From Escherichia phage vB_EcoM_swi3: a stretch of 52,782 nt of DNA. The notes beneath the pieces were generated by a model. The model was not told the DNA's origin and searched no databases. It worked only from the letters and a program-made list of their open reading frames with translations. The DNA lies in sequence record MT768059.1; one strand, given 5' to 3'. The stretch's first letter is position 1. Each line of letters opens with the position of its first letter. Below, piece after piece: positions 1-49,661 of this stretch. Position numbers and translations under genes: made by a program.

Positions 1-121
1 ACTTAGAGGTGTCTATATGTATGATCCGGTTTATCTCTTTATTAATATCAGAACCGGATGAAAAAAATTTACGCTGGCGAAAAAAATAAAAAAGCCGGAT
101 TGATAAATAAATCTGTAGACG

Positions 122-150
122 TTTACACTATAAAAAAGATGTGTTACAAT
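122..150 (+). promoter_or_regulatory. sigma70-like promoter (TTTACA-N17-TACAAT) upstream of 205..636
   Basis: Hexamers and 17-nt spacing read directly; 8-bp inverted repeat ATCCGGTT/AACCGGAT lies upstream at ~21..56. Confidence 0.45.
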
Positions 151-204
151 ATTTATCAATGTTGCTGATTACCAAATCTTTGGATTATATACGAGGCTGA
201 ATAA

Positions 205-636
205 ATGGTTAATATAAGACAGAAAGGACAGAACTTTGAGCGTAAAATGGCTAAGAAGTTCAATAGCTCGTTCGGATTAACTGTTGAGCGCAATCTTCAA
301 CAGTCTATTAATGGCGGGGATGACTTGCTGGGTGTACCGTTTTTCAGTGTTGAACTGAAGAAGCACAATACCAAGTCTATCGGAACATGGTGGAGACAGT
401 GTGCGGCATCGGCAAAGGCTCAGAACAAGATGCCGGTACTGATATACGAACTACCAAGAAAACAGCCTACCGTGGTGATGAATAAGGCTGATGTGATTGA
501 CTGTTTTCCAAGTGGCACGACTTTTAACGAGGCATCGAACCGCCTCTTTGTGGGTTTAGTAGAATTAACATGGGAACAATTTTGCCGGGTCTACAACTAT
601 TACGTTGCGCCCGGCACTCAATATCACGTCAATTAA
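205..636 (+). CDS. PD-(D/E)XK-fold nuclease, possibly Hjc/RecU-like Holliday junction resolvase
   Basis: 143 aa; N-terminal GQNFERK, then GGDDLL ... SVELKK matching D...(E)xK spacing of PD-(D/E)XK nucleases. Confidence 0.45.
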   Translation: MVNIRQKGQNFERKMAKKFNSSFGLTVERNLQQSINGGDDLLGVPFFSVELKKHNTKSIGTWWRQCAASAKAQNKMPVLIYELPRKQPTVVMNKADVIDCFPSGTTFNEASNRLFVGLVELTWEQFCRVYNYYVAPGTQYHVN

Positions 637-818
637 TCTTGTTTCAGCTCGTCACAAATGACACGCTGATTTTTGGCAGGGATAATACCAAGATTTAGCA
701 GGGTGTATGGACTATCAGCGACGCATTGTTCAACGGTAGTCCATTCAGGTTTGGATTCAACAATTTCGTAATTACAGTCGTGAGCTGCAATACATGTTGA
801 CAGTATTAAGCCAATCAC
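633..818 (-). CDS. hypothetical protein (GTG start)
   Basis: ORF continuing the leftward array; AGGTGA Shine-Dalgarno-like upstream; competes with antisense ORF 794..982. Confidence 0.25.
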   Translation of the reverse strand: MIGLILSTCIAAHDCNYEIVESKPEWTTVEQCVADSPYTLLNLGIIPAKNQRVICDELKQD

Positions 819-993
819 AAGTAATCACCTTCAACCAGGAACTCAAACAGCTGGTTGTAAACGTTGCAACCTTTAGCGAAAGAGCTTTCAGCAGGTTTAC
901 CGTCGCGGACGATCATCATATACTCACCGCCATGAATATCAACCCAGTATTGCATGCCACCTTTGACAGGGTTACGTTGTAAGAATTTAAACA

Positions 994-1239
994 TTATTTG
1001 CTCCTGATTCCAAGTTTATTCAATAACCAAATTGTCATGTCAACCCAGGTTAACGGTACAGTTTTCGGGGGTTGATAATCCCAGCAGCTTGCAGTTCTTT
1101 GTATTTCTGCTTGGCGCCGCTCCGCTTCGCGTAATACCGCATCGTCAGAAGTGCCGGCAGAAAAAAGATCGGTAACACCAGATAAATCGCGTTGATTAAC
1201 ACGTCGAGCAATGTCATATAAATCATCCTTAGAAAACAT
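994..1239 (-). CDS. hypothetical early protein
   Basis: 81-aa ORF downstream of minus-strand promoter at 1492..1520. Confidence 0.4.
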   Translation of the reverse strand: MFSKDDLYDIARRVNQRDLSGVTDLFSAGTSDDAVLREAERRQAEIQRTASCWDYQPPKTVPLTWVDMTIWLLNKLGIRSK

Positions 1240-1466
1240 AAGCCAATACCATAAGAATTATCAGAAAGACCACAACCAGCTTCCTCATCGCCCGACCTTC
1301 AGCATATGCAGGATTCACAACAGAATACTCAACAACATGTTTACAGCGGACCATAAGGCCTCCACTTGTGGGTTAATTCAAGCATGAGGACTTTCATCAA
1401 ATCCTCAGGATTGAATTAATTACCAGCTTTTAATCAAGCCCTGTCAGCGCCAGGACTTGACTAATA

Positions 1467-1670
1467 TCACTCTATCATTACCTGAACTACTATTATACAC
1501 TCTTTATTGAAGCGAGTAAACACTTTTCCACCATTAGTGCGTTTAGCCCCAGATTTTAGAGCTGACTGGCACCAGATATGCCACTCCTCAACTGTCAAGA
1601 ATTTTTGCTCAGCTTTGGGTGGCAATCCATTGGCAAGGTCTACCGTAGTAAATTTGACTAGTGGCATCAC
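1467..1670 (-). CDS. hypothetical early protein
   Basis: 67-aa ORF, 4-nt overlap with upstream ORF 1667..2056. Confidence 0.4.
   Translation of the reverse strand: MMPLVKFTTVDLANGLPPKAEQKFLTVEEWHIWCQSALKSGAKRTNGGKVFTRFNKECIIVVQVMIE
1492..1520 (-). promoter_or_regulatory. sigma70-like promoter (TTTACT-N17-TATAAT) on minus strand
   Basis: Reverse complement reads gTTTACTcgcttcaataaagagtgTATAAT; embedded in 3' end of ORF 1467..1670. Confidence 0.45.
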
Positions 1671-2056
1671 TTGACCTCAAATTTTGACTCGTCGTATTCC
1701 GGATCAGTCACGTCCCGGGTCGCACAATTTTTGATTGCTTCCCAGTAGCGTTGGGCGTCATCACCATCGACGTAAACCGTCCAGTGGCCGTAACCACCTT
1801 CAAATCTGTCCCAGGCTTGTTCCCAGACTTTGCCATCTTCCAGCTTGTACCAAGTTGGACGACTGTCAAACTCACGAATTGGATGGTACCCCATCAAGGG
1901 ATTCATCAGGTCGATAATGTCTTCCCGACTAATCTCCTGGTTCTCCCACAACACCGTCATGAATTGCTCAAACTTGAAGGCGTTTGGCAGAACTTTGAGT
2001 ACTTTACCGTCACAATATACGGTATAGATACCATCTTCGCATTTTGCACTGTACAT
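1667..2056 (-). CDS. hypothetical early protein
   Basis: 129-aa ORF in co-directional array. Confidence 0.5.
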   Translation of the reverse strand: MYSAKCEDGIYTVYCDGKVLKVLPNAFKFEQFMTVLWENQEISREDIIDLMNPLMGYHPIREFDSRPTWYKLEDGKVWEQAWDRFEGGYGHWTVYVDGDDAQRYWEAIKNCATRDVTDPEYDESKFEVK

Positions 2057-2129
2057 GTTTCTCTCTCCTGTTGATTGTGAATAATTTCAAAAATGAACTA
2101 TCACAACTTTGGACAGTTCATTGTTGAAA

Positions 2130-2318
2130 CTATGCTAACTTTGTTGCGATCTGAATTGTCAGCCGGAAATCTTCCATCAAGTTATCAAACTCTTTGGAAC
2201 CACCAACAGCATCAGATATTTGATCTTTCACAATTTGGGCATTTGATTCCAGTAATTCAATCAGGTGCGCCAATTCGTCTTCAGTCAATTTCAGATCTTT
2301 CATAATGCATCCACCCAA
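2130..2318 (-). CDS. hypothetical small acidic protein
   Basis: 62 aa, about 12 D/E vs 6 K/R. Confidence 0.4.
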   Translation of the reverse strand: MGGCIMKDLKLTEDELAHLIELLESNAQIVKDQISDAVGGSKEFDNLMEDFRLTIQIATKLA

Positions 2319-2557
2319 GCCATAACTTTTGCCAGTCTTACAACGTCTTCATGGTCCCGCTCGCCATCAGAAAATTCGCTGGCGATGATACCCATAATTG
2401 ACGCCAGATTCATGTTGATGATGTAGGCGTGTTGGCGCACTTCATCAATTCCTGAATCTATCACCAGTTCCGCAAATTCTTGTGAACCTTCATCCCATTC
2501 AGCCCAATACTGCTCAGCATAAAAGTCCAGTTCTTTTTTCATCTCAATGTCAGTCAT
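2300..2557 (-). CDS. hypothetical small acidic protein
   Basis: 85 aa, about 20 D/E vs 6 K/R. Confidence 0.45.
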   Translation of the reverse strand: MTDIEMKKELDFYAEQYWAEWDEGSQEFAELVIDSGIDEVRQHAYIINMNLASIMGIIASEFSDGERDHEDVVRLAKVMAWVDAL

Positions 2558-2562
2558 TTTGA

Positions 2563-2763
2563 TTACTCCTCAGAACCTGAAAATTTGTCGTCAATGGCTT
2601 CAACAATATAATCAAGAGTTGAAGTGTGAGAACTATCAGAAAAAGTGCCCATCTTCTCTAACTCAATCATCATATCACGCAAGGCCATCGCCTGGTCTTT
2701 GGTCAGTTTGATTTTAAGCATGTTTCTCTCCTGTTGATTGCGAATAACTTTCATTGATGGCAC
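2563..2763 (-). CDS. hypothetical small acidic protein
   Basis: 66 aa, acidic C-terminus. Confidence 0.4.
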   Translation of the reverse strand: MPSMKVIRNQQERNMLKIKLTKDQAMALRDMMIELEKMGTFSDSSHTSTLDYIVEAIDDKFSGSEE

Positions 2764-2785
2764 TACTTGAGCGCCATCTCAAAAA

Positions 2786-3355
2786 TTACTCTTCAGTTTC
2801 TTGTGCTTCAGTTTCAGGTTTTACTTCAGTATCAGGTTTTTTGCCAGTTACTGATTTGCCTTCGGTCACTTTACCAGATTTTACATCATTACGGTAGTAT
2901 GACATATATGACTGGATAACACGTTTTGCCTTAATATCATCCGCTTCCATTCCGCAAGCTTTCATCGCATCAGCGAGCGCCAATTTGGAGTCTTCCTTAT
3001 CCATCAGGTTGTAATCTTTGAACACCAGATAGCAGGTATCTTTAGTTGACGGACCAGATGACGATTTGCGAGAGCCACCAGCGGATGCTCGTGTTGTCGC
3101 AACTTTGACTTCTTCAACTTCCAGTTGGTTCAGCTCGTCAAACAAAGCCTTCACCAGCACTTCTTTGGAGTCTTTGACGCTTACAGTACTTTCATCATTA
3201 AGCGACTTAATCATCTTAATGATCTGGTTGTTGGCAAAGTACTGAAGACTATCCATCTGCACTACAATAGTGCCAAGACTTTCAGTAGTCAAACCAGATT
3301 TCACAGACTCGACAGAAAAAGCGGAAGTCAGGTAAACGTAGTTGATAGTTGTCAT
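2786..3355 (-). CDS. hypothetical protein with acidic C-terminal tail
   Basis: Start placed at internal ATG (3355) preceded by GAGGA; ORF-track start 3424 lies in palindrome GACAACTT..AAGTTGTC. Confidence 0.45.
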   Translation of the reverse strand: MTTINYVYLTSAFSVESVKSGLTTESLGTIVVQMDSLQYFANNQIIKMIKSLNDESTVSVKDSKEVLVKALFDELNQLEVEEVKVATTRASAGGSRKSSSGPSTKDTCYLVFKDYNLMDKEDSKLALADAMKACGMEADDIKAKRVIQSYMSYYRNDVKSGKVTEGKSVTGKKPDTEVKPETEAQETEE

Positions 3356-3450
3356 TTGATGTATCCTCGTTGATAGAATTTTTGATATGTGCCAATCCTT
3401 GGCAAGTAAGTCCAAACATGACAACTTTTGTCAAGTTGTCATGATTGAAA

Positions 3451-3753
3451 TCACTTCGCGCTTGCGTTTTCAACGGCTTGTACAACTTTCAACAAATGCC
3501 TGAAGTCATCATGATAGATTTCATTAAAGCCATCTGCCGCAAAGTTTTCGCCAATTAAGATCAGTCTTTCGCGGACCAAGTCAATCAATAGTTTATTGTC
3601 AGTTATTTCCGCACCTGTAACAAGTTCAACAAATAATTGCTGTACGTTATCGCAACGGATGTTACTTTCAATACACACTTGGCGCATGTCTTCAACTATT
3701 GACATGATTGTGACTTGCATTTCTACGTCAGAAGTGATGTTATTCAGTTTCAT
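3451..3753 (-). CDS. hypothetical small acidic protein
   Basis: 100 aa, about 17 D/E vs 9 K/R; first gene of leftward array next to control region. Confidence 0.45.
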   Translation of the reverse strand: MKLNNITSDVEMQVTIMSIVEDMRQVCIESNIRCDNVQQLFVELVTGAEITDNKLLIDLVRERLILIGENFAADGFNEIYHDDFRHLLKVVQAVENASAK

Positions 3754-3953
3754 AATAGTTACCTTTGTACTAGTTTCCAGGTGTGACTACTGTTACCAAT
3801 AGTCACTAGTTGAAACTACTACTTGTGTTACTATCAACAAGAAACATGTTACCAAATTGTTAAAGAGCAAAAGGTACCATTGACATCTACCAGATGTACC
3901 TGTTGACTGGTTAAGTACTACCTACCTAATCTAAACCATACCAATATCCTTTA

Positions 3954-3970
3954 GACCAGTTAGACTGGTC
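3954..3970. promoter_or_regulatory. perfect palindrome GACCAGT-TAG-ACTGGTC (putative operator)
   Basis: 7-bp arms with 3-bp spacer read directly; half-site GACTGGT recurs at 3905..3911. Confidence 0.4.
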
Positions 3971-4138
3971 AATCAGTCATCACATTCAATAAATATATAA
4001 TAGACCAATCGCTATTGATTGTACATAAAAGAATTGCAAGTTTATGCAAGTTTTTAGAAATGATAATCACTTGCGATTGATAGTGGTTCTCATATACAAT
4101 TGATATAGTTTCACATGTAATTATTCAACTCAAAATGG

Positions 4139-37541: not shown

Positions 37542-38426
37542 TTATACGGCCATTTGGAGTTTGATGTTTGGCATTGGTTTGTACTTCTCAACCATTGGCG
37601 TAACATCGGCAGGAGTGAAGTCAAACACTGACACGTCATAAATTGCATTAATGTCAGGACGACCTTCAAAGTTAGTGTCCAGTGTAGTATCAGAATTGCT
37701 TACGATACGTTGCAGGAAAATCTTTGCCGCATCGATATGATTCTGATAGATGTGATAATCACCCAGCGTAACAGTCATATCACCTACCCCAGTACCCAGC
37801 TCAGCAGCAATGGTAATCTGCAACATCTGATGCAACAGAATATCGTGAGGCAGACCAAGGATAACATCCGCGCTACGCATGTGGAACATCAGCTCTAATT
37901 CATTACGGTTGTTAATGAACAGCTGAAAACCATGGTAACAAGGCGGAAGGGCCATGGCGTCCATCTCTTGTGGGTTCCATGCCGTAATGTATGCCCGGCG
38001 GTCAGTAGGCTTAACCTTCAGCGTTTCAATAACGTCTTTAAGCTGGTTAGTAAGAACACCATTCTTATAGAATGGCTTAATCCATTGCACGCCGTACACA
38101 GGACCTAAGTCACGATTGTCTGGTGTACCCCAACGTTTGTTTGCATCCTGCAGGTTACCTTCCCACCAGTTGCAGCCAAAGCCTTTGAGTGTGTCGACGT
38201 TTGAAATGCCGTTGATAAAGCAGTAAAGCTCAGCAGCAACAGCTTTGATGTTAACAGGTTTAAATACCGGCACCATCAGTTTGTTGTCGTTAAAAGCCAG
38301 CTTAAACGCTGTACCAAAACAACGGCGTGTACCAACACCTGTACGGTCTACAACATCCTCGCCTTTACGCAGGATAAAAGAAATGATGTCGCTGTAAAGA
38401 GAATCGACAGTGCTGTATGTTTTCAT
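37542..38426 (-). CDS. thymidylate synthase-family enzyme with Asp at uracil-specifying position (putative dCMP C5-hydroxymethylase or -methyltransferase)
   Basis: 294 aa; DRTGVGT, DLGPVYG, catalytic-Cys motif ALPPCY, RSADVILGLPHD, GDYHIYQNH; ThyA N177 equivalent is D195 (codon at 37842..37844). Confidence 0.8.
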   Translation of the reverse strand: MKTYSTVDSLYSDIISFILRKGEDVVDRTGVGTRRCFGTAFKLAFNDNKLMVPVFKPVNIKAVAAELYCFINGISNVDTLKGFGCNWWEGNLQDANKRWGTPDNRDLGPVYGVQWIKPFYKNGVLTNQLKDVIETLKVKPTDRRAYITAWNPQEMDAMALPPCYHGFQLFINNRNELELMFHMRSADVILGLPHDILLHQMLQITIAAELGTGVGDMTVTLGDYHIYQNHIDAAKIFLQRIVSNSDTTLDTNFEGRPDINAIYDVSVFDFTPADVTPMVEKYKPMPNIKLQMAV

Positions 38427-39019
38427 TAAAACAGTTCCTTTTGAGCCGGGTTAACGTGTGCGTCGATGATGGCCTGGATGTCAGGTGCTTTCCATCCTTC
38501 AGGCTTAACAATATCCTGACCAGACTTATGCTTGCTGTTGCTTGCATCAGGCTTAGCGCGTTCTTTCGCCATGTTAGCAGCCTGTACAGCATCCCATGCT
38601 GCGTCAAGTGGCCAGTTGTTGTTTGCACACCAGGTAATCAGGTGGATAATTAACTGGGCCAGACGGTCGCAATGAGTGTCTTCAGTATCCTTAACGTATA
38701 CAATAAGGCCATCAGCATCGAAACGGTCCATAAATCCGCATGGCGTAGTTAACAGAATAGGATACTCAAATTCGTTGGTGAACCATGCAGTCTGGTCATA
38801 CAGGTATAACGTACCTGCAGCGATGTAAATTAAATCTACAATACCGTCTAAGAATCCAGCTTTATCGCCGTCCTTCTTAGCTTGTTTAATTTCTTCCATC
38901 TCCTCAATAAGACGGTCGTAGCGAAGCTTGAACTCAGGTTTACCGCCTTGACTAACAGGCTTGAGGTCAAACTTCTCATGAAAAGCGGTAACGCCTGCAG
39001 CAATTTTACTGAATCGCAT
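38426..39019 (-). CDS. putative MazG-like (all-alpha) nucleoside triphosphate pyrophosphohydrolase
   Basis: ~197 aa from ATG at 39019 after GGAG; EExxE motif (LIEEMEEI) and downstream acidic helix (DGIVDLIY). Confidence 0.45.
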   Translation of the reverse strand: MRFSKIAAGVTAFHEKFDLKPVSQGGKPEFKLRYDRLIEEMEEIKQAKKDGDKAGFLDGIVDLIYIAAGTLYLYDQTAWFTNEFEYPILLTTPCGFMDRFDADGLIVYVKDTEDTHCDRLAQLIIHLITWCANNNWPLDAAWDAVQAANMAKERAKPDASNSKHKSGQDIVKPEGWKAPDIQAIIDAHVNPAQKELF

Positions 39020-39404
39020 TTCGTAACTCCTTACAAACAGTTTCGATAAACTTACGTTTAATTTCTGTAGACCAGATAACATGACGAGCCTGTTCTAAAG
39101 TGTCCCAACGTTCTTTACCCACAGGAAAGGGAACAATGAAAAGGCCGGTACGGGATATGCGCTTGATAAACGGGAATTTACATCGCATGGTTGTTTCAAA
39201 CTTGATAAAGTTGGTTTGCACTTCGCGTGTAAACTTGACCTTATCAAATTCATGTTCAAGAGTTTGAGCAAGGTTGCATACTTCCTGGAAAGAAGATGTG
39301 GGTAAGTAATCTTCGCGGCCGACGGTGTTCACGTAGTCGATTTGGCCTTCGAGTCGAAGTATCCAAATCCTGTAATAAGCTTCAGCAACACGTTGTAGGT
39401 TCAT
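39006..39404 (-). CDS. hypothetical protein
   Basis: 132-aa ORF downstream of promoter 39431..39459. Confidence 0.45.
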   Translation of the reverse strand: MNLQRVAEAYYRIWILRLEGQIDYVNTVGREDYLPTSSFQEVCNLAQTLEHEFDKVKFTREVQTNFIKFETTMRCKFPFIKRISRTGLFIVPFPVGKERWDTLEQARHVIWSTEIKRKFIETVCKELRNAIQ

Positions 39405-39430: not shown

Positions 39431-39459
39431 ATTATACCACATCACTCTCTAGTGGTAAA
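39431..39459 (-). promoter_or_regulatory. sigma70-like promoter with extended -10 (TTTACC-N17-TATAAT, TGG upstream of -10)
   Basis: Reverse complement reads cTTTACCACtagagagtgatgTGGTATAAT. Confidence 0.5.
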
Positions 39460-39480: not shown

Positions 39481-39515
39481 AAATAAAAAGGACCAGCGTT
39501 AACTGGTCCTTTTGG
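39481..39515 (-). terminator. rho-independent terminator
   Basis: GGACCAG-cgttaa-CTGGTCC hairpin; minus strand reads TTTTTATTT after the stem. Confidence 0.6.
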
Positions 39516-42553: not shown

Positions 42554-42582
42554 TATATATTATACCACTTCCTTGTGGTAAA
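42554..42582 (-). promoter_or_regulatory. sigma70-like promoter on minus strand
   Basis: Reverse complement reads TTTACCACaaggaagTGGTATAATatataa; exact -10 choice ambiguous. Confidence 0.4.
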
Positions 42583-42590
42583 GTATACTT

Positions 42591-43469
42591 TTATTTTAAG
42601 GAAAGTTTAACGGGCTTCTCATCCTGCGGGAAGACATCAGCAGGGCGATAATCATCACAAGCTGCTAATTGCTCTTCGATTGTTTCGAGTTCTTTCTGGT
42701 GCTTGTTGCAATACCACACTTTGCCCTGAAGCGGTTTACTGTAATGGCAGGTTCTGCAGTTCCTGTCTGGCATTGCCCCTTTGTGGCACAGGTGATGGTA
42801 TTCGCACATCCCTGGTTTGCACTCCCACCAAATAGGCGATTCAGAAATCTTCGGCATATCCAAACCAGATTCCGCATATACAACAGCCTCCGCTTTACTC
42901 AGTTGTATGTCGCTTTCCAGTAAGTCAATCTCGACCACTTCAAAATACATCTCGTCAGTGTTCTTATTGATTGCAATGTACACAGCTTGATTCAGCTTAA
43001 GCTTCCGCATGTATACCTGCATCTGGGCGTAGTGTACCGGCTTACTTGCTTTAACAGACTTGAGCTTGACTAACTCCTTAAACGACTTATCGCCATGCGT
43101 CTTGAACTCAGCAAGTGCCCATACGCCTTTGTATTTAATTACACAGTCACAAGACCCAGAGAAGATGTCATTGAATTCGTGTATGCGCCACTGCTTACCA
43201 GTCTTGGGATTGACGTCCAGCACTTCGTCACATACGGTGCGAAGCCACTTTACAATTCTGCTTTCTTCAAGGTTACCACGTTCAAACAGACGAAGTTGCT
43301 TAGCCGAAAACTTCTCCTTGAACGACCAGTGCAGAACGTGCCAAAGATAGCGATAGCAGTTGTGTCCTATCTGCGATGCTCCAAGATGCCCGCGTCGTTC
43401 TTCTCTTTCGTGGGCTTCGACTATCTTGATGTCAATACGTTTCTGCAGGTCGTCAAACGGACTTGGCAT
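42591..43469 (-). CDS. PD-(D/E)XK nuclease, Cas4/RecB-like, with C-terminal Cys cluster
   Basis: Start at ATG 43469 after GGAG; motif D ... EFK (DCVIKYKGVWALAEFK); C-terminal CKPGMCEYHHLCHK ... CRTCH. Confidence 0.55.
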   Translation of the reverse strand: MPSPFDDLQKRIDIKIVEAHEREERRGHLGASQIGHNCYRYLWHVLHWSFKEKFSAKQLRLFERGNLEESRIVKWLRTVCDEVLDVNPKTGKQWRIHEFNDIFSGSCDCVIKYKGVWALAEFKTHGDKSFKELVKLKSVKASKPVHYAQMQVYMRKLKLNQAVYIAINKNTDEMYFEVVEIDLLESDIQLSKAEAVVYAESGLDMPKISESPIWWECKPGMCEYHHLCHKGAMPDRNCRTCHYSKPLQGKVWYCNKHQKELETIEEQLAACDDYRPADVFPQDEKPVKLSLK

Positions 43470-43938
43470 TGTTAAACTCCTCAACGCTGAATTCATCGTA
43501 TACAATATTATGTGCCCACAAATGGGCGACGGCATTTGCCATACTGTCTTTCCATTTGGATTGTGAAGCTGTATGAGCCAATGCAACTACCCGAACCAGG
43601 TTAAGGTTGGCTATCAGCATATCTGCACAATGTTCGCACGGCGGGTAGGTTATGTAGATGGTAACCGGGCCTAATGAAGGAGTGTCTAACTCTCTCCTTA
43701 TATTAGCTAAGGTGTTTATCTCGCTATGAATAGTTAGAGCGTTCTTAAGGCTATTAGGCACTATTCTTATAGAGTCTAACTGCGTAGGCAGACCATTATA
43801 TCCAGTGGAAATAATACGCTTGTTCTGGTCCACAAGAACGCTACCGACTTGACGTTTCGGGTCCTTCGACCAGCTCGCAACTTCACAAGCTATGCGCATA
43901 AACCGCCTGTCCCACTTGTCCATCTTCTTCTTTTGCAT
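43453..43938 (-). CDS. dCMP deaminase
   Basis: 161 aa; zinc-binding HSE and PCEHC motifs of CMP/dCMP deaminases. Confidence 0.8.
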   Translation of the reverse strand: MQKKKMDKWDRRFMRIACEVASWSKDPKRQVGSVLVDQNKRIISTGYNGLPTQLDSIRIVPNSLKNALTIHSEINTLANIRRELDTPSLGPVTIYITYPPCEHCADMLIANLNLVRVVALAHTASQSKWKDSMANAVAHLWAHNIVYDEFSVEEFNNAKSV

Positions 43939-43999: not shown

Positions 44000-44527
44000 T
44001 TATTCTTCCCAAGGAGCTGCTGCACCATCGTCAGCACCAGGTGCCGTTGCAGTAGCACTCGCACCTGCACCTACTTTCTTCGTCGTCGATGCAGTTGCTT
44101 GAGAATGACCACCTACTGCAGTAGTTGCTTCAGTTGACGCTTTGTATTCGCGAATATCGTTTTGTGGGTCGTACTCACCGGTCTTGTCGATACGAACACC
44201 AACTTTACCAGCTACAATACGGTTTTCCAGTAAGTCGGTAGAAGTCAGTTCAACAATACCCAGCGCACGACACAACGCAGACAGTTTGCGATGACCGATT
44301 TCAACAGCTTGTGCATTAGGGTTGGAGTAGGTAATCATGTCAAATACAACACGGTTAGCGAACTCACCTTCCTGCACTTTCAGACGCAGGGACAGGTAAG
44401 AACCAGTGCCTGCTTTAGTCGGCTTCAGCTCAACCTCTTCAATCATGAAGTTGTACCAGCCTTTCGGGATCGGGTCAAAAGACTGTTGCGGTTCGACGGT
44501 AGAGCTGTTGAAGTTTAATTCAGCCAT
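44000..44527 (-). CDS. putative single-stranded DNA-binding protein
   Basis: 175 aa; Ala/Thr/Gly-rich flexible C-terminal region ending in acidic residues; adjacent to Sak4-like ATPase. Confidence 0.35.
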   Translation of the reverse strand: MAELNFNSSTVEPQQSFDPIPKGWYNFMIEEVELKPTKAGTGSYLSLRLKVQEGEFANRVVFDMITYSNPNAQAVEIGHRKLSALCRALGIVELTSTDLLENRIVAGKVGVRIDKTGEYDPQNDIREYKASTEATTAVGGHSQATASTTKKVGAGASATATAPGADDGAAAPWEE

Positions 44528-44634
44528 TGTTTGGTATCCTGTTTAAGTTTAGTTTAATTTCGTTTAACGCTTTACCGGCAGCGTTCGGCCGTGATGCTTA
44601 TTATACGCCACTTTTTATCATGGCGTAAACACTT

Positions 44635-45519
44635 TTATTCGCTGGTTCCTTTCTCAGCTTGAGCGGCTTTCTTCGCCATCCAGGCTTGGTGCTTCTCTTT
44701 CGATTCGTCCGAACCGATTTTAGTGAGCTGCACGTTCGGGTCGTCGTTCTGCATCTGTTCTGCAGCTCGACCTGTCAGGAGCAGGTAGCTGTCTGACTCC
44801 GGATGATAGTACCACAGCTGGTAAGGATGATAGCCTTGCAGCTTGTCATAAATCCAGCCCAGGTCAGCAGGTTCACGTGCATCCAGTTCACGGCCTGGTG
44901 CGTTACGGCACTTAGCTTCCCATTGATAGTCGGGCTGTGTCTGGATGTAGCGCTCGCTGTTACCATTTGCATCAGGTGCAGTCATACGTAAAGCAAGCAC
45001 CGCATCCATAAGATACGGCAGTTGTTTAGGTAACTGCTGACCAGGCATAAGTGGTGAATACAACATTGCACCACTAACCTCGTCCTTGTTCTTCTCAAGC
45101 TTGCAAAGGTATGCAACGCTGAAAGGCAAGTCACGGAACTGACGCATGATATACATCATCTTGTCGTTGGTGTTACCATACGCCTGTCGTTTGTCGTTGA
45201 CCTGCGACTTCTCATAGTCCAGACAAACTTCAGCCACATCTGACAGCGAGTCGAAAATCAGATGCTCATACTTCTGCGCATCCTTACTTTCGGTAAGCCA
45301 TTTGTACAGCGCCAGAATGTCGTTGAACGTATTGATTGGCGTAGAGTCGATGTCAGCATCTGCGATCGACATCAAACCGCCTTCAGCGTTAATGACAAGA
45401 ACCTTATCGTGAGGCAAGGTCTTAGCCAGGCTGGTTTTACCAACACCTGATGCGCCGTAAATAGCGACCTTAGGTCGCTTATTTTCTACGGCTTGTTTAG
45501 TAGATACAATCTGAACCAT
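44635..45519 (-). CDS. RecA-fold P-loop ATPase, Sak4-like
   Basis: 294 aa; Walker A KVAIYGASGVGKTS near N-terminus, Walker B-like LIFDSLSD. Confidence 0.5.
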   Translation of the reverse strand: MVQIVSTKQAVENKRPKVAIYGASGVGKTSLAKTLPHDKVLVINAEGGLMSIADADIDSTPINTFNDILALYKWLTESKDAQKYEHLIFDSLSDVAEVCLDYEKSQVNDKRQAYGNTNDKMMYIMRQFRDLPFSVAYLCKLEKNKDEVSGAMLYSPLMPGQQLPKQLPYLMDAVLALRMTAPDANGNSERYIQTQPDYQWEAKCRNAPGRELDAREPADLGWIYDKLQGYHPYQLWYYHPESDSYLLLTGRAAEQMQNDDPNVQLTKIGSDESKEKHQAWMAKKAAQAEKGTSE

Positions 45520-45749
45520 TAATGATAGTCCTCGTAAAGTGATTCTTCATCGCAGTACATACGATAAAGAGCTTCTTCGGCTTCTTCCAGGGTGTCAAAC
45601 TCCTCGCCACAGACGGAGTATTTTGTGGGTTCATCGAATGACTCGACGATGTGCCAGTCATGATGAATACCGTATGTCCACAAGTCGCAGTCGTCTTTTG
45701 CAACAAGCTTACGTGTGGAACGAAATTGTGCTAGAGTATTGATGCTCAT
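45519..45749 (-). CDS. hypothetical protein
   Basis: Start moved to ATG 45749 after GAGGAGAGAG because promoter-like TATAAT lies at 45777..45782. Confidence 0.4.
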   Translation of the reverse strand: MSINTLAQFRSTRKLVAKDDCDLWTYGIHHDWHIVESFDEPTKYSVCGEEFDTLEEAEEALYRMYCDEESLYEDYH

Positions 45750-45809
45750 ATTCTCTCTCCTCATGTGTATAGAGGTATTATACACCACTTACATGGGGTA
45801 AGTACACTA

Positions 45810-46292
45810 CTATTTTACACTAACAGCTTGACACGATAGCCGTGACAAACCGAGGTTGGCTATGACACCATCGAGCAATACTCCTGCATGTTCTTCATTG
45901 TATGCTTCTACCCACAAAGGGATGGTGACGCCCTTCAGGTGGTCGCTGTACACGTTGTACCTATATACCTGTTTGTGTGCTTTGTCAACACGTACAACAG
46001 TAAGGTTACCATCCTCGTAAGGAGGAAGCTCAACGCCTTTCTTACTCCAGAAGTTACGGAACTCAGCACTATTAACAATGCCGTGTACAACACGCTCAGT
46101 AAGTTCTGTTTTGAGGTCAGCACGTGCCTTTGTACTGATAAAGAAACGACAAGAGAAGAAAGCATTGACGTTTATCACATCAACCGCATACACAACGTTA
46201 TGCTCTTCAGTAGTTGGTGCTTTATAAACAATGTATTTAGTTTTGAACAGGTCCATAGTACTCTCCAGGGAGGAAGACTGGCGGGCTTGCAC
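45810..46292 (-). CDS. hypothetical protein
   Basis: 160-aa ORF. Confidence 0.4.
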   Translation of the reverse strand: MQARQSSSLESTMDLFKTKYIVYKAPTTEEHNVVYAVDVINVNAFFSCRFFISTKARADLKTELTERVVHGIVNSAEFRNFWSKKGVELPPYEDGNLTVVRVDKAHKQVYRYNVYSDHLKGVTIPLWVEAYNEEHAGVLLDGVIANLGLSRLSCQAVSVK

Positions 46293-46304
46293 CCGCCTAA
46301 GTTA

Positions 46305-47210
46305 TTACAGCAGTTCTGCTTTCAATGCAGCGATACCATCGAGCAATGCTTTGATGTCCGGATTAGATGCCGCCAGGTCAGCAACAACTGACTGACGACG
46401 ACGTTCCAGCTCTTTCTCAACTTCCAGGTCGAGGCGTGCTGACGCTTCACGCAGTAAGTCTTCAACCTGCTGACGACGCTGATACTTGTTAAAGTCAGGC
46501 ACATCAACCAGCCATTTGAGAGTTGCAGTGTTGTAGCCAGAAGTATTGGCTGCACTTACAGACACAACATCAACGAGCTTGGTGCCATTCAGCTCCGGAT
46601 AGTTAACATTGCGAACGTCAACAACCGCTTTGTCACCTACACTTACTTTGCCGATGTACTTGTAAGTGTACACACGACCAGTCGGTTCAAACTTAACACC
46701 AACAAACTTCAGTTTGTCGTCTGCAATAACCTCTTCCTCAACTTTGAAGTTGATTGCAGTGTTCTTGACAGGTGCAGCCGCTTTGAGCTTAGCGACCATG
46801 TACTGTTCTGAATGAGACGGACGGCACAGACGGAAGACGTCCTCATTGTAGGTCAGCCAGTTACCGGTCTCATCCACGCATGCAATCTGATTAGTGCCAT
46901 CCAGTGAACGAACACCCGGGCGATTCTTCTCAATACGATACAGCTTACCTTCTTTCAGGTTAGCGTAAGAACGGCGGGCGATACCCCAGTTGTGTTTTTC
47001 AGATTCGTACTTAGCGAAACGGTCAACGCTGAAGTTCTGCTTCAGACCACGGTCGTCGATTACCCATAAGTTATCGTAAGCACCGCCGAAAGAGCCGAGG
47101 TTGGCATACACTTTGCCCTGCGTCAACAGGGAAGTGTTTCCCTCGTCAACACAGATAACAAAACCCAGAGCTTCGTGTGCTTTACCGCTGCGGTCAAATA
47201 CTGTAGTCAT
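46305..47210 (-). CDS. hypothetical protein
   Basis: 301-aa ORF with coiled-coil C-terminus. Confidence 0.5.
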   Translation of the reverse strand: MTTVFDRSGKAHEALGFVICVDEGNTSLLTQGKVYANLGSFGGAYDNLWVIDDRGLKQNFSVDRFAKYESEKHNWGIARRSYANLKEGKLYRIEKNRPGVRSLDGTNQIACVDETGNWLTYNEDVFRLCRPSHSEQYMVAKLKAAAPVKNTAINFKVEEEVIADDKLKFVGVKFEPTGRVYTYKYIGKVSVGDKAVVDVRNVNYPELNGTKLVDVVSVSAANTSGYNTATLKWLVDVPDFNKYQRRQQVEDLLREASARLDLEVEKELERRRQSVVADLAASNPDIKALLDGIAALKAELL

Positions 47211-47324
47211 TTCTTGTTTCCTTGTATACCAGTTTGATTGTATGCCAGAGATATTCCCTGCGCATGTGCTTTATTGCTTAACCGTTAAAGACATTATATC
47301 ATTAGTGAGTGGTGACGTACACAT

Positions 47325-47615
47325 TTATTTTAAGGCAGAAGTGCAAATAGCATCACACAAACAATAATGAGCACGGTCGTAGTCTTCAAACAAGAACACT
47401 TCGCCATTGGCGACAACTTCATTGCTGTTGACCTGCAGGCTAATACCTGAATGCAGAAGCACATCCATAGCCTGGTCCTTGTTCTTGTACGGGTCCCAAA
47501 TAAGCTGGAAGCCTGACCCGCAAAGGAGACATCCCTTGAGCTCCGGAAGAGTTGACTCCTTCACAGTCACATTACAAATCTTAGCCAGTTTAGCACGAGA
47601 ATCGAGAGTACTCAT
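47325..47615 (-). CDS. hypothetical protein
   Basis: 96-aa ORF. Confidence 0.4.
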   Translation of the reverse strand: MSTLDSRAKLAKICNVTVKESTLPELKGCLLCGSGFQLIWDPYKNKDQAMDVLLHSGISLQVNSNEVVANGEVFLFEDYDRAHYCLCDAICTSALK

Positions 47616-47902
47616 TTACGTTTACCTTTACGTTTGTGTAGCGGAGTATATGTTTTCTTTGGTACGCCAAACATGGCCGCATATGTACCGACTTCTTTCT
47701 TTGTTGGCTTATCCACAATTTCGTCAATCACGATTAAGTCATGGTCGATATTGCGAAAGACTTCAGCCGCTCTTTTCTCAACAGGAGTAAAGTCAATAAC
47801 CAGCTCTTTGCCTATCAGGCTTTCTTTGAGCTTGTCAAATAGCCATTTGTCACGCGGACCAGGATTGCCCATAAACATAACACGCATCTGCTTATTGTCC
47901 AT
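47612..47902 (-). CDS. hypothetical protein
   Basis: 96-aa ORF, basic C-terminus. Confidence 0.4.
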   Translation of the reverse strand: MDNKQMRVMFMGNPGPRDKWLFDKLKESLIGKELVIDFTPVEKRAAEVFRNIDHDLIVIDEIVDKPTKKEVGTYAAMFGVPKKTYTPLHKRKGKRK

Positions 47903-47992
47903 GGATGATATACCCCGTTATTTGTGTTGCCAGGTACAAACCGTATACCACACACCCAACTAGTATGGCATCAAGAATCAGATGAGCTATCT

Positions 47993-48307
47993 TCACGTTT
48001 GATCACCGGCCTTGACTGTAACGTTACGGCTGTTAACAACTTCCAGGCTGGTGCCATCCTTTTTGTGGGTTACACGAATAAATGCAACACCCTCAGCCTG
48101 TGCCTGTTCAATAGCTTTATTCAGCACAACATTATCCTGTACCATATGACGTACGCGAGGAAGGATATTGCAAAGAGGTTCCATCTCATCCATTCCTGCA
48201 GTACGCATGACTGACTTGAGAATGCCAAGATGATGCTTATAACGGTCTTCAAGATTGTACTTCTTGCCGTTATCACGAAAACGTTCTGATGCCATGTAAG
48301 TCTCCAA
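47993..48307 (-). CDS. hypothetical protein
   Basis: 104-aa ORF. Confidence 0.4.
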   Translation of the reverse strand: METYMASERFRDNGKKYNLEDRYKHHLGILKSVMRTAGMDEMEPLCNILPRVRHMVQDNVVLNKAIEQAQAEGVAFIRVTHKKDGTSLEVVNSRNVTVKAGDQT

Positions 48308-48339
48308 AAGTCAAGGGGCTTGTGCTAAGCCCCGTCTAA

Positions 48340-48789
48340 TTACTCGGCTTCTTCCGTAGCCGCCGGGGTGAATGTTACAGTCGGAATACCAGGCGAGGTC
48401 TTCACAACAGGGTCGACGATAGCCAGTTGTTCTGGTGTCAGGTTACGGTATGCAGTAACTGACATTTCATACTTGGTTTTAAACAGCTTGGCAACAACAG
48501 TCTTCGGTAACTTCTTCATTACATCAGGCACAAGCTTCTGGTCTAGTGAGCGGTTAACCTTCTGCTCAACCTTGAGTTTACCAGGTACGCCATGCATGCT
48601 GAACTCAACCGTTTGTGTACCTTCTTTACCACGATTGATAATCATGTCACGTTCAAGACGTGCTTTAATGGTCCGGCGCAACGTCTCCTGGTCAGCTTTC
48701 GCTTGTGCCATCCAGCGGTTCAGATTCGCCAGCTTGTCGTACAGCTGTTCCGTATCCATCGATTCCAGTTCTTGTGGGTTCAATGCCAT
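48340..48789 (-). CDS. hypothetical protein
   Basis: Start at ATG 48789 after GAGGAA; ORF-track start 48825 is GTG without RBS. Confidence 0.45.
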   Translation of the reverse strand: MALNPQELESMDTEQLYDKLANLNRWMAQAKADQETLRRTIKARLERDMIINRGKEGTQTVEFSMHGVPGKLKVEQKVNRSLDQKLVPDVMKKLPKTVVAKLFKTKYEMSVTAYRNLTPEQLAIVDPVVKTSPGIPTVTFTPAATEEAE

Positions 48790-49060
48790 CAGTTGTTTCC
48801 TCAGGTTGCATGTGCATAGTTGCACCTATTAGTAGACAATAGTTATTGAACATTGTACGTAGTGCTTGGCCCGCAACAATATCCGTTATGTCTATTATAC
48901 CACTTTTAGTGGTGACGCGTAAAGCTTTTTCTTTCTTTGTTTTCTCCACAAATGCAATGCTGATGATTTCTTCCGCATGAATTACGTGGATGGTACCTGC
49001 AAACTCACCAGTCTTAGCTGGTGCCTGGTACACTAACGACATAGACGGTTGGTTACTCAC
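48692..49060 (-). CDS. hypothetical protein (doubtful extent)
   Basis: GTG start after AGGAG; contains promoter 48894..48923 and overlaps next gene by ~98 nt. Confidence 0.25.
   Translation of the reverse strand: MSNQPSMSLVYQAPAKTGEFAGTIHVIHAEEIISIAFVEKTKKEKALRVTTKSGIIDITDIVAGQALRTMFNNYCLLIGATMHMQPEETTDGIEPTRTGIDGYGTAVRQAGESEPLDGTSES
48894..48923 (-). promoter_or_regulatory. sigma70-like promoter with extended -10
   Basis: Reverse complement reads TTTACGcgtcaccactaaaagTGGTATAAT. Confidence 0.45.
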
Positions 49061-49070
49061 TTAATTACTC

Positions 49071-49508
49071 CTATTTATATAAGTCCATCCAGTTACGATA
49101 CTCGTCATAAAACCGGTCAAACTCGTTTTTGGTGAGTGCAATAGCAACACCATTTACCAGATGCATGGTTCGTGTTTTGATGTTGACATACATGACGTTG
49201 CTGTACGGGAACAGACTACCGTCATTGTCAGTAAAGTAAGTCGGTGTGATATGAAGCGCATCACGCAATGCAACCAGTGATTCAACAGCTTCAGCGTGCC
49301 ATTCACGTCTGAAGGTCATGCAAGGCGGTGCACCGTCTTCGTCCTGGGTACCGCGCAAAGTAAGATATACAATTTCGGCAGTATCATTGTGTACAATTAC
49401 GCTAATGTCAACGATGTCGCTGGTACGGAAGGTAACAAAGTGCTCTTCAATTACTTGTTCGTCGGTATTAGGGCTGACGCCCTGAAAGGTCTTGAGTGTG
49501 TGAAACAT
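49071..49508 (-). CDS. hypothetical protein
   Basis: Start at ATG 49508 after AGGAG. Confidence 0.4.
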   Translation of the reverse strand: MFHTLKTFQGVSPNTDEQVIEEHFVTFRTSDIVDISVIVHNDTAEIVYLTLRGTQDEDGAPPCMTFRREWHAEAVESLVALRDALHITPTYFTDNDGSLFPYSNVMYVNIKTRTMHLVNGVAIALTKNEFDRFYDEYRNWMDLYK

Positions 49509-49661
49509 TGGTTGTATCTCCTTAACAGAATGTAAGTCTATTATGTATATAAAGGAGGGGAAAGTAAATAGATATAAATGTATAAAATACATAAAAGTCT
49601 ATTTACTCTGGTTTAATAACGTGTATATAATGAGAGCCCCACAAACAAGAGGAGAGACTCA

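Follow-up and report, generated by a model that had tools for sequence, protein, structure and literature searches.

We describe a block of nine genes, here called g1 to g9, at positions 45519–49592 of a window of 52,782 nt, the sequence record of Escherichia phage vB_EcoM_swi3 (accession number MT768059.1). The window represents a genome of Rosemountvirus (BP63-like), a genus of Salmonella and E. coli phages that has been sampled well, and the region is 96–98% identical to more than 40 GenBank phages, including LSE7621, BP63 and IntR. The nine head-to-tail reading frames reported in an earlier note on this DNA proved real, and all of them lie on the minus strand (Table 1), flanked by the divergent primase promoter region and the gene of a Sak4-type ATPase. 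The replication neighbours of the block encode this AAA_24 ATPase, a DUF669 SSB (directly after the ATPase gene), a dCMP deaminase, an exonuclease, an SF2 helicase and PolA, with the primase gene in divergent orientation.

Table 1. Genes and regulatory features of the block and its downstream neighbour (positions in the window).
Feature	Position	Strand	Description
Divergent promoter pair	49540..49631	both	leftward 49568->49540, rightward 49602->49631
g1	49071..49508	-	145 aa; phrog_37966; clade-specific; predicted start ATG 49508 with AAGGAGA Shine-Dalgarno site
g2	48692..49060	-	122 aa from GTG; 116 aa from ATG at 49042
P(g3)	48894..48923	-	TTTACG-N18-TATAAT, TG at -15/-14
g3	48340..48789	-	149 aa; Pfam DUF7173
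Hairpin after g3	48315..48333	-	GC-rich, then T-rich run; -12.3 kcal/mol
g4	47993..48295	-	100 aa; phrog_27896; no promoter of its own
g5	47612..47902	-	96 aa; end overlaps g6 start by 4 nt (ATGA)
g6	47325..47615	-	96 aa; four invariant cysteines C29, C32, C87, C91
P(g7)	47293..47321	-	TGTACG-N17-TATAAT, TG at -15/-14
g7	46305..47210	-	301 aa
Hairpin after g7	46280..46297	-	GC-rich GGCGGGT-GCAA-GCCCGCC; -18.2 kcal/mol
g8	45810..46256	-	148 aa; phrog_37080; clade-specific; no promoter of its own
P(g9)	45777..45806	-	TGTACT-N18-TATAAT; GTG before -10
g9	45519..45749	-	76 aa; acidic C-terminus
Sak4-type ATPase	44635..45519	-	Pfam AAA_24; next gene downstream of g9, same strand

Gene starts were corrected using Shine-Dalgarno sites and orthologue alignments. 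The 173-aa start of g1 at 49592 falls within the gene's own promoter, and the aligned orthologues keep the start MFHS or MYHS. The Rosemountvirus genomes BP63, LSE7621, vB_EcoM_IntR and KE24 have the same gene order at 96–98% nucleotide identity, and published records of the genus annotate the block genes as hypothetical proteins between primase and a Sak4-like protein. These annotations disagree on the length of g1 (173 or 145 aa, depending on the record), often omit g2 or put a spurious ORF on the plus strand in its place, and, in IntR and SD286, shorten g3 to 123 aa; promoter features are absent from the records inspected. In fHy-Eco03, mass spectrometry found the orthologues of g1, g2 (gp75), g3 and g7 (PMC8145870).

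The earlier note saw no recognisable motifs in any of the proteins. This holds for eight of the nine, which have no Pfam or NCBIfam family, but g3 matches Pfam DUF7173 (8e-44). For g1, searches of Pfam, NCBIfam and PDB gave no match. In the g2 protein, a core of about 85 aa is conserved and an acidic tail of low complexity is variable; the coding sequence of this tail shares 98 nt with the start of g3. With its invariant cysteines, g6 is possibly a small zinc-binding protein; it had no Pfam match and no significant PDB match. The gene of the small, acidic g9 protein ends in a stop codon that overlaps the start codon of the Sak4 gene (TAATG), which suggests translational coupling of g9 to the Sak4-type ATPase. 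In the structural model of g3, an alpha/beta domain comes after a long helix at the N-terminus; the model of g7 begins with two SH3-like barrels, continues with a linker and a third such barrel (residues 167–219), and ends in a long helix. Stand-alone phage proteins of a widespread family (phrog_3489, phrog_13551) share the C-terminal domain of g7, and homologues of this domain lie in the replication modules of Achromobacter JWX, Streptococcus Javan505 and Arthrobacter Wayne. The likeness of g7 to the N-terminal 3'-DNA-binding domain of PriA is that of a generic SH3-like barrel and finds no support at profile level: eukaryotic SH3 domains score equally, and a profile of 41 members of the g7 family found no PriA in the PDB. 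Nor does g7 have a helicase part.

Promoters of the form T[TGA]TAC-N17-20-TATAAT occur 15 times in the window, against 0.38 expected and a maximum of three in 300 simulations, and all 15 lie on the strand of the local genes; TGNTATAAT occurs six times (1.96 expected). In alignments of orthologous intergenic regions across lineages, the -35 and -10 elements vary little or not at all, whereas their flanks are divergent. The strong minus-strand sites of the earlier note were recovered as TGGTATAAT at 39431, 48894 and 42559, the last of these not at 42554 as listed there. Its weaker site at 47293 is present (TGATATAAT); that at 45777 has the TATAAT, preceded by GTG and not by a true TGn extended -10. 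Further sites at 44605 and 40601 were absent from its list; the promoter of this type ahead of the SSB gene spans 44600–44629. Among the three strong sites, only that at 48894 is interspersed in the block; those at 39431 and 42559 lie outside, ahead of other replication genes. Nor does each gene stand behind its own promoter, as had been proposed. A TATAAT promoter lies directly upstream of g3, g7 and g9 only; g2, g4, g5, g6 and g8 have none, and g1 is served by a TTTACT-17-CATAAT without TG. In all, only three such promoters and one divergent promoter serve the nine genes.

In the divergent pair, the leftward promoter is predicted to drive g1–g2 and the rightward promoter (TTTACT-18-TATAAT) to drive orf110 and the primase gene; both are conserved in the alignment with Loughboroughvirus, fHy-Eco03 and Erwinia SOI901. 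P(g3) is embedded in the codons of g2, with L-R-V forming the -35 and G-I-I (GGT ATA ATA) the -10 element; ATA accounts for only 16% of Ile codons. This promoter is kept at the orthologous position in three relatives (L002, L005, L003) and reads TATGAT in a fourth (L004). P(g7) is followed by a conserved palindrome, TTAACGGTTAA, at 47278–47288, and P(g9) is conserved in all four lineages. The hairpin after g3 (GGGGCTTAGCACAAGCCCC TTGACTTTTG) looks like an intrinsic terminator or attenuator and has an equivalent of different sequence in L002 and L005. The position of the hairpin after g7 is conserved in L002, L005, L003 and L004, although the stem sequences differ.

Judged by their sequence, these should be real sigma-70-type promoters, recognisable by host RNA polymerase without phage factors; the phage has no evident sigma factor or RNA polymerase of its own. 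Host sigma-70 RNA polymerase would initiate at the divergent pair (49.54–49.63 kb) and re-initiate at the internal promoters at 48.90, 47.30 and 45.78 kb, which follow a phage-wide consensus, T[T/G]TAC-N17-18-(TGn)TATAAT; this type carries on at 44.60, 42.56 and 39.43 kb, and a weaker site of related form lies at 40.60 kb. The GC-rich hairpins after g3 and g7 would partly insulate these genes, whose flanking promoters and hairpins point to promoter-plus-terminator units with products probably made in large amounts, while g2, g4–g6 and g8 would be carried by polycistronic transcripts. We infer transcription starts and expression level, and predict the use and timing of the promoters and the strength of the terminators. 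Multi-promoter early/middle operons transcribed by host sigma-70 polymerase occur in T4- or T5-style lytic coliphages, and many small genes, consensus-like -10 elements (some with TGn) and internal promoters or attenuators are common to those operons and the present one. Unlike in the T4- and T5-style classes, the promoter form found here also precedes structural genes and thus indicates no clear temporal class.

Across four genus-level lineages, which include Loughboroughvirus, fHy-Eco03 and Erwinia SOI901, eight of the nine genes have orthologues in synteny, and g1, g3, g7, g8 and g9 are each present in about 59–61 of some 61 related genomes (g1 in 60 and g9 in 61 of the related records). 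The sole sporadic gene is g5, found in 42 of about 61 genomes where its neighbours occur in about 60, and missing in relatives L007, L002, L003 and L004. The most conserved gene of the block is g3, with 72–77% identity between lineages, comparable to Sak4 (70–86%) and SSB (70–78%). At that level of Sak4 identity, g1, g2 and g8 reach only 31–62%; g1 (31–52%) is fast-evolving, g8 (33–62%) is lacking in Erwinia SOI901, and the values for g4 are 40–56%. In Loughboroughvirus S144, the same operon, already named the main replication operon, carries the same block genes as ORF56–ORF67 of cluster C (PMC7432712). In that phage, four more small genes separate the orthologues of g1 and g2, g7 is longer, at 439 aa, and has a further domain at its N-terminus, and g5 is missing; the host-type promoters predicted for it coincide only partly with the conserved sites found here.

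Phages carry single-strand-annealing modules composed of Sak4 and SSB, one example being HK620 Sak4 and the SSB cognate to it. As in those modules, a core-only RecA-like ATPase (AAA_24) is followed here by a DUF669-type SSB, with an exonuclease and a helicase in the operon; we know of no role described for DUF7173 or a g9-like protein in such systems. In Septimatrevirus SCUT-S3, Alteromonas PB15 and Nonagvirus FritzHoffmann, Pfam-confirmed DUF7173 genes adjoin AAA_24 ATPase genes or are at most 2.1 kb away from them; in Seuratvirus yong3, 2.8 kb separate a weak tblastn match to g3 (E 1e-2, without Pfam check) from an annotated "AAA domain protein". These neighbourhoods associate DUF7173 with AAA_24; an interaction between the proteins is putative. 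Foldseek neighbours of g3 include PD-(D/E)XK or RecB-like exonuclease domains of actinophages.

A different function, that of a receptor-binding or virion protein, has been claimed for the g3 orthologue gp38 of SD286. The fHy-Eco03 orthologues are annotated "putative structural protein", and gp74 was found by LC-MS/MS in purified particles (PMC8145870); recombinant, N-terminally truncated gp38 (123 aa) bound to cells and raised the free-phage titre at 0.8–1.6 mg/mL, and the published claim that it blocks adsorption counts against the interpretation that we prefer (PMC12946066). However, g3 sits in the replication operon, distant from the tail genes, and its family is tied to AAA_24 ATPases in other genera. 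The same mass-spectrometry list also labels as particle-associated the orthologues of four replication proteins (Sak4, DUF669 SSB, putative exonuclease and primase) and thus reflects abundant carry-over, not only virion components, and the truncated, basic gp38 (pI 9.65), applied at mg/mL concentration, is likely to have bound non-specifically. We regard a virion function of g3 as scarcely credible. Somewhat less improbable, but still very unlikely, is that some of the conserved genes (e.g. g1, g7 or g8) act in a DNA modification pathway. The DNA of these phages resists most restriction enzymes: that of S144 was cut only by the AT-specific SspI and PacI (PMC7432712) and that of fHy-Eco03 only by ScaI among ten enzymes (PMC8145870), and modification genes were not identified in either phage. 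The block genes are conserved in both of these lineages with reportedly modified DNA, and the operon also encodes a MazG-like pyrophosphohydrolase, a dCMP deaminase and a "thymidylate synthase" in which Asp replaces the Asn that specifies dUMP in thymidylate synthases. Against this, searches of Pfam, NCBIfam and PDB found none of the nine proteins to resemble a transferase, kinase, glycosylase, radical-SAM or PLP enzyme, and the models of g7 (barrel and coiled-coil) and g3 (helix and alpha/beta) have no evident catalytic fold; DUF7173 also occurs in Pseudomonas and Alteromonas phages, whose DNA may or may not be modified.

The earlier note considered such genes the usual home of host-takeover and anti-defence factors, and it is true that they have no demonstrated function. 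An island of early genes, each disabling a host function or defence system, would agree with the scarcity of known families (g3 matches only a domain of unknown function), the strong host-type promoters, the sporadic g5, and the divergence of g1, g2 and g8, which is much faster than that of the adjacent replication genes and would also fit host-interacting proteins. The interval between g1 and g2, with zero to four extra small genes in relatives, behaves as an insertion hot spot. In a toxicity screen of fHy-Eco03 genes of unknown function, the g9 orthologue gp68 inhibited growth moderately at best, and "some toxicity" was noted for g73 and g77, which belong to the corresponding interval; clear toxicity was confined to gp05, a gene of the terminal repeat and thus outside this region (PMC8145870). 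Such an island is nevertheless unlikely, given the synteny of eight genes across four lineages, the recurrence of the g3 and g7 families in replication modules of unrelated phages, the same promoter type ahead of the SSB and helicase genes, and the lack of similarity to solved anti-defence proteins in PDB profile searches. An anti-defence or host-takeover role may apply only to g5, which is sporadic, and to g1, g2 and g8, which evolve fast.

The explanation that we prefer, and hold as a whole with moderate confidence, is that, in the leftward operon for DNA replication and recombination of a Rosemountvirus, the block forms the promoter-proximal third, and that its products are mainly conserved accessory proteins of this module. 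These would include g3 as a partner of Sak4-type annealing modules, g7 as a multi-SH3-barrel, coiled-coil protein of a replication-module-associated family, as its model suggests, and g5 as an optional accessory gene. From the observed gene structure, promoter statistics, conservation and genomic linkage, we infer a role of the block products in DNA metabolism. Guilt by association of this kind fits both an action in replication or recombination and the shielding of replication intermediates from host nucleases or defence systems. The block would thus be largely ordinary, consisting mostly of conserved core genes rather than of a variable anti-defence island.

The nine genes g1-g9 of Escherichia phage vB_EcoM_swi3, all encoded on the minus strand, are best understood as belonging to the operon for replication and recombination, of which they make up the promoter-proximal part. 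They encode conserved accessory proteins, and two of these (g3 and g7) are members of widespread families that are associated with replication modules. An earlier note had described them as individually promoted early genes. That observation is confirmed in part, because the genes and the promoters are real but the genes are not individually promoted.

The 5 kb around g1-g9 matched phages of Salmonella and Escherichia from the genus Rosemountvirus (LSE7621, PA13076, BP63, IntR and KE24 among them) over the full length with 96-98% identity, and a single match covered at least 80% of the region in 44 records. The Loughboroughviruses S144, ZCSE2 and SE4 are farther relatives (~70-72% nucleotide identity), and phage fHy-Eco03 and Erwinia phage SOI901 are still further removed. 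In record OM313460.1, the 5-kb query lay at identical coordinates without net indels at an identity of only 96.7%, with g5 100% and g1 97.9% identical; the difference could reflect another record version, a mosaic difference or draft-assembly errors.

Annotated relatives and Pfam scans of the window place g1-g9 in the leftward replication arm, in the order divergent primase, g1-g9, Sak4-type AAA_24 ATPase, DUF669-type single-strand binding protein (SSB), dCMP deaminase, Cas4-like exonuclease, SF2 helicase, MazG-like pyrophosphohydrolase, thymidylate-synthase homologue and PolA. The orthologous cluster C of S144 has already been termed the main replication operon (PMC7432712). The ATPase gene and the adjacent SSB gene thus share a cluster with exonuclease, helicase, primase and polymerase genes. 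The helicase (ResIII and Helicase_C) and PolA were confirmed with Pfam; the primase is supported by record annotations and a DUF3987 match (E 4.7e-5) whose 23.2 bits lie below the 27-bit gathering cut-off, and the Cas4-like exonuclease is taken from the record annotation, since it had no Pfam match at 1e-3. An Rfam scan of 38-52.8 kb returned no RNA genes.

Coordinates of features in the window
Feature	Position	Strand	Remarks
g1	49071-49508	-	145 aa
g9	45519-45749	-	
AAA_24 (Sak4-type) ATPase	44635-45519	-	same strand as SSB; Pfam 3e-28
DUF669-type SSB	44000-44527	-	adjoins AAA_24, same strand; Pfam 8e-14
Divergent promoter pair	49540-49631		
P(g3), promoter of g3	48894-48923	-	TGGTATAAT
P(g7), promoter of g7	47293-47321	-	TGATATAAT
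P(g9), promoter of g9	45777-45806	-	GTG-TATAAT
Promoter sites outside g1-g9	42559; 39431 (39431-39459)	-	TGGTATAAT
Promoters of the same type, replication arm	48.92, 47.32, 45.81, 44.63, 42.59, 39.46 kb		
Weaker related promoter site	40.60 kb		
Promoter of the same type	1492-1520	-	
Second promoter flavour	7379, 10752, 12668, 18126, 20992, 49602	+	
Second promoter flavour	49568	-	
Hairpin after g3	48315-48333		GC-rich, T-rich tail
Hairpin after g7	46280-46297		GC-rich
Palindrome	47278-47288		TTAACGGTTAA
12-bp hairpin	39486-39513		AAAAGGACCAGTTAACGCTGGTCCTTTT
Thymidylate-synthase homologue entry	37542-38426, with 38426-39082 and 43453-43938	-	

The nine ORFs are present as previously noted, but several starts needed correcting, which was done with orthologue alignments and Shine-Dalgarno sites. 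The start of g1 is at 49508; a 173-aa version opens within the gene's own promoter. Gene g2 is often left out of annotations or replaced by a spurious plus-strand ORF (e.g. in KE24). It is a real gene all the same: a core of ~85 aa is kept in alignments of all four lineages, and its orthologue in fHy-Eco03 (gp75) was detected by mass spectrometry. The tail of g2 is variable and acidic and overlaps the start of g3 by 26-130 nt, depending on the lineage. A programmed frameshift between the two genes was rejected because of this varying overlap, the length variation and low complexity of the tail, and because g3 has its own promoter and start. Overlaps of 4 nt between the end of g5 and the start of g6 and of 1 nt between the g9 stop and the start of the ATPase gene suggest that both pairs are translationally coupled. 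Long plus-strand ORFs (127-167 aa) antisense to g3, g5/g6 and g8 were rejected as genes; they are shadows, because stop codons break them in relatives.

Searches against the loci of the relatives (tblastn) showed that g1, g2, g3, g4, g6, g7, g8 and g9 keep their order in Loughboroughvirus and fHy-Eco03. All of these apart from g8 are also present in Erwinia phage SOI901, whose g2 orthologue was identified by alignment alone. In the phage collection, g1, g3, g7, g8 and g9 were each present in 59-61 records of the clade and g5 in only 42. A comparison of gene content across relatives, as the earlier note had proposed, did not show the varying content of an accessory island among close relatives: eight of the nine genes are core, being universal in ~60 genomes and syntenic in four lineages, and g5 is the only sporadic one. 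Content varies between g1 and g2, where relatives carry 0-4 additional small genes, and between g4 and g6.

Amino-acid identity (%) of the window proteins to their orthologues; the SOI901 value for g2 is from a separate orthologue alignment
Protein	S144	fHy-Eco03	SOI901
g3	77	72	72
g7	70	47	46
g6	60	53	48
g9	55	54	51
g4	51	40	42
g8	62	33	absent
g1	52	31	34
g2	33	31	28
Sak4 (comparison)	86	74	70
SSB (comparison)	70	72	78

The promoter elements reported earlier were found at 39431, 48894 and 47293, but the one placed at 42554 lies at 42559, and that at 45777 lacks the TGn motif. An extended -10 element (TG at -15/-14 before a TATAAT-like hexamer) is present at P(g3) and P(g7) and at both sites outside the g1-g9 region; it is lacking at P(g9) and at the promoter of g1, which has CATAAT without TG. 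The promoters have -35 hexamers (TTTACG, TGTACG, TGTACT) at spacings of 17-18 bp, within the range of 16-19 bp, and are located on the gene strand upstream of the start. P(g7) and P(g9) are intergenic, 30-90 nt upstream of the start codon. P(g3) is sited inside g2, with its -35 element carried by the g2 codons for L-R-V and its -10 element by GGT ATA ATA (G-I-I); ATA makes up only 16% of the Ile codons.

A scan with a loose promoter consensus gave no enrichment (25 sites vs. 22.8 expected). The pattern TGNTATAAT was observed 6 times (1.96 expected), and T[TGA]TAC-N17-20-TATAAT occurs 15 times in the window (0.38 expected), with all copies on the strand of the local genes. Six of these are on the replication arm, and therefore one promoter type precedes g3, g7 and g9/Sak4 as well as the genes for the SSB and the helicase and the one at 39404; this promoter type is a genome-wide feature. 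In orthologous intergenic alignments, the -35 and -10 elements of P(g9), P(g7), the SSB promoter and both divergent promoters are invariant or near-invariant in diverged surroundings, and the elements are kept in four lineages with variable flanks. Enrichment and conservation together argue that the promoters are real and non-random.

A second promoter flavour, (C)TATTTAC(T)-N17-TATAAT, is located upstream of structural genes, the primase gene and g1 (TATTTAC-N-NATAAT: 4 observed vs. 0.04 expected); the replication-arm promoters, by contrast, tend to (A)AAGTG-T[T/G]TAC...AAGTGG(NN)TATAAT. Just downstream of the -10 element of P(g7) is a perfect 11-bp palindrome within a block (TTTAACGGTTAAGCAAT) that has been kept in Rosemountvirus, Loughboroughvirus and fHy-Eco03, and in part in SOI901; the palindrome occurs nowhere else in the window and so could be an operator. 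The strong 12-bp hairpin directly upstream of the promoter at 39431-39459 is flanked by A and T runs and looks like a bidirectional terminator.

The GC-rich hairpins after g3 and g7 are at the same positions in relatives, with differing stem sequences. In the layout that we infer, the divergent promoter would serve g1-g2; P(g3) would serve g3 and, by read-through of an attenuator, g4-g5-g6; P(g7) would drive g7 and, beyond the hairpin, g8; and P(g9) would drive g9 together with Sak4. Three internal promoters and one divergent promoter would thus serve nine genes, at odds with the earlier claim that each gene lies behind its own.

The proteins had also been said to carry no recognisable motifs. 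This holds for eight of them, for which Pfam, NCBIfam and PHROGs gave no functional family, but not for g3, which matches Pfam DUF7173 (PF23791; 8e-44, 149.5 bits vs. a cut-off of 27) over positions 2-143 of the 145-position model. The remaining PHROGs matches were to clade-specific families without known function. In the structural model of g3 (pLDDT 86), a helix of 35 residues leads into a small alpha/beta domain; fold comparison found no PDB neighbour, and the BFVD neighbours are mainly uncharacterised phage proteins, together with PD-(D/E)XK or RecB-like exonuclease domains of two actinophages. In three other groups, Pfam-confirmed DUF7173 genes share a strand with AAA_24 genes and lie beside them or at most 2.1 kb away: Pseudomonas Septimatrevirus SCUT-S3 (MazG, DUF7173, AAA_24, SSB, RecB-like exonuclease, helicase), Alteromonas phage PB15 (AAA_24, DUF7173, other genes, YqaJ exonuclease, helicase) and Nonagvirus FritzHoffmann. 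A weak tblastn match to g3 (E 1e-2) has a comparable location in Seuratvirus yong3, at a distance of 2.8 kb from a protein annotated as having an AAA domain. A wider retrieval of DUF7173 loci by close alignment gave close relatives only, word-index protein searches with g7 and g3 stayed within the clade, and a literature search for a Sak4/Gp157 link found none.

In the model of g7 (pLDDT 78), a disordered linker joins two N-terminal SH3-like barrels to a third barrel, which is followed by a helix of 60 residues. When 1.8 billion representative proteins were scanned in full with HMMER, the C-terminal barrel-plus-helix domain had 489 relatives, the majority stand-alone proteins of 120-140 aa; the relatives scanned match phrog_3489 and phrog_13551. 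The family also has members in the replication modules of three further lineages: a short distance upstream of PolA and primase in Streptococcus phage Javan505, between helicases and an exonuclease, a Sak4-like gene and polymerase/primase in Arthrobacter phage Wayne, and fused in the 501-aa gp59 of Achromobacter phage JWX, between a MazG-like gene and an exonuclease. Homology of residues 167-219 to the 3'-DNA-binding domain of PriA is regarded as unproven; a profile of the C-terminal family did not find PriA in the PDB. In Loughboroughvirus (S144 and a further relative) and many metagenomic relatives, g7 is extended at its N-terminus by 50-140 aa that the 301-aa protein of the window lacks, and the domain architecture therefore varies within the clade.

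Recurrence with replication and recombination modules in unrelated phages was thus seen for g3 and the C-terminal domain of g7; g1, g2, g4, g5, g6, g8 and g9 are specific to this clade. No functional lead came from the searches with g1, g2, g4, g5 and g8. Four cysteines are invariant in g6; a resemblance to NinX/DUF2591 had been considered and was dropped, having no Pfam support. The small g9 protein, universal in the clade, has an acidic C-terminus.

Other roles have been proposed for these genes. The earlier note linked genes of this kind to host takeover and anti-defence, a reading that finds no support when the block is taken as a whole: eight of the nine genes are universal, and the family and profile searches gave no similarity to anti-defence or host-shutoff proteins. 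PDB profile searches with orthologue alignments of g1, g2, g3, g4, g6, g8 and g9 returned nothing significant (E never below 0.08), the fold comparison being confined to g3 and g7; matches to an "Acb2 homolog" (E 0.77) and an adenylate-kinase lid (E 0.09) were discarded as noise or CxxCG motif. Among 32 genes of unknown function screened for toxicity in fHy-Eco03, gp05 in the terminal repeat was the only one with a clear toxic effect; the orthologue of g9, gp68, had a moderate inhibitory effect at most, and 'some toxicity' was noted for g73 and g77 (PMC8145870). The sporadic g5 and the fast-evolving g1, g2 and g8 may still have an anti-defence or host-directed role. Small genes of unknown function also occupy ~1-4000 and the region beyond 52500, along with one promoter of the same type at 1492-1520; these regions may correspond to the terminal repeat and look like a more plausible host-takeover region than g1-g9.

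A receptor-binding function was proposed in 2026 for gp38 of SD286, an N-terminally truncated g3 orthologue, from adsorption inhibition at 0.8-1.6 mg/mL (PMC12946066). It is regarded as unlikely, given that the gene is part of the replication operon rather than of a tail or baseplate module and is linked to AAA_24; the fold comparison gave no receptor-binding neighbour. Orthologues of g1, g2, g3 and g7 were detected in particle preparations of fHy-Eco03, as were Sak4, SSB, putative exonuclease and primase (PMC8145870); since replication enzymes are on the list, it reflects abundance, not virion location. On account of this LC-MS/MS detection, all eight are labelled 'putative structural protein' in MW602648.1, a label that is unreliable for the same reason and could spread into other annotations.

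The thymidylate-synthase homologue of the operon carries Asp in place of the dUMP-selecting Asn (RSADVILGLPHDILL vs. RSADLFLGVPFNIAS). dCMP hydroxymethylases and methylases carry this substitution as well. Together with the MazG-like pyrophosphohydrolase and the dCMP deaminase of the same operon, it fits the reported cytosine-type DNA modification of S144 and the reported restriction resistance of fHy-Eco03.

Since g1-g9 are present nearly identically in dozens of phages in GenBank, annotated as hypothetical, they are not new as objects. The analysis makes a modest contribution: it corrects the map of genes and promoters of the genus, which includes a conserved promoter within the g2 coding sequence, and reclassifies most of g1-g9 from accessory to core replication-operon genes. 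It also casts doubt on two published annotations, the 'putative structural protein' of fHy-Eco03 and the 'receptor-binding protein' of SD286. The search for anti-defence genes in these therapeutic-candidate phages is better directed at g5, the g1-g2 insertion slot and the small terminal-repeat genes. Two leads emerge, the recurrence of DUF7173 near Sak4-type ATPases (Septimatrevirus, Nonagvirus, an Alteromonas phage, the Rosemountvirus clade and probably Seuratvirus) and that of the g7 C-terminal domain in phage replication modules. Rather speculatively, both families may be widespread but so far overlooked accessory factors in recombination-dependent replication of the Sak4 type. In that case, g3 would act as mediator or loader for the core-only RecA-like ATPase, acidic g9 as its coupled regulator, and g7 would bind DNA ends or forks; the three proteins would jointly replace host restart functions, and their own promoters and terminators would supply them in stoichiometric amounts.
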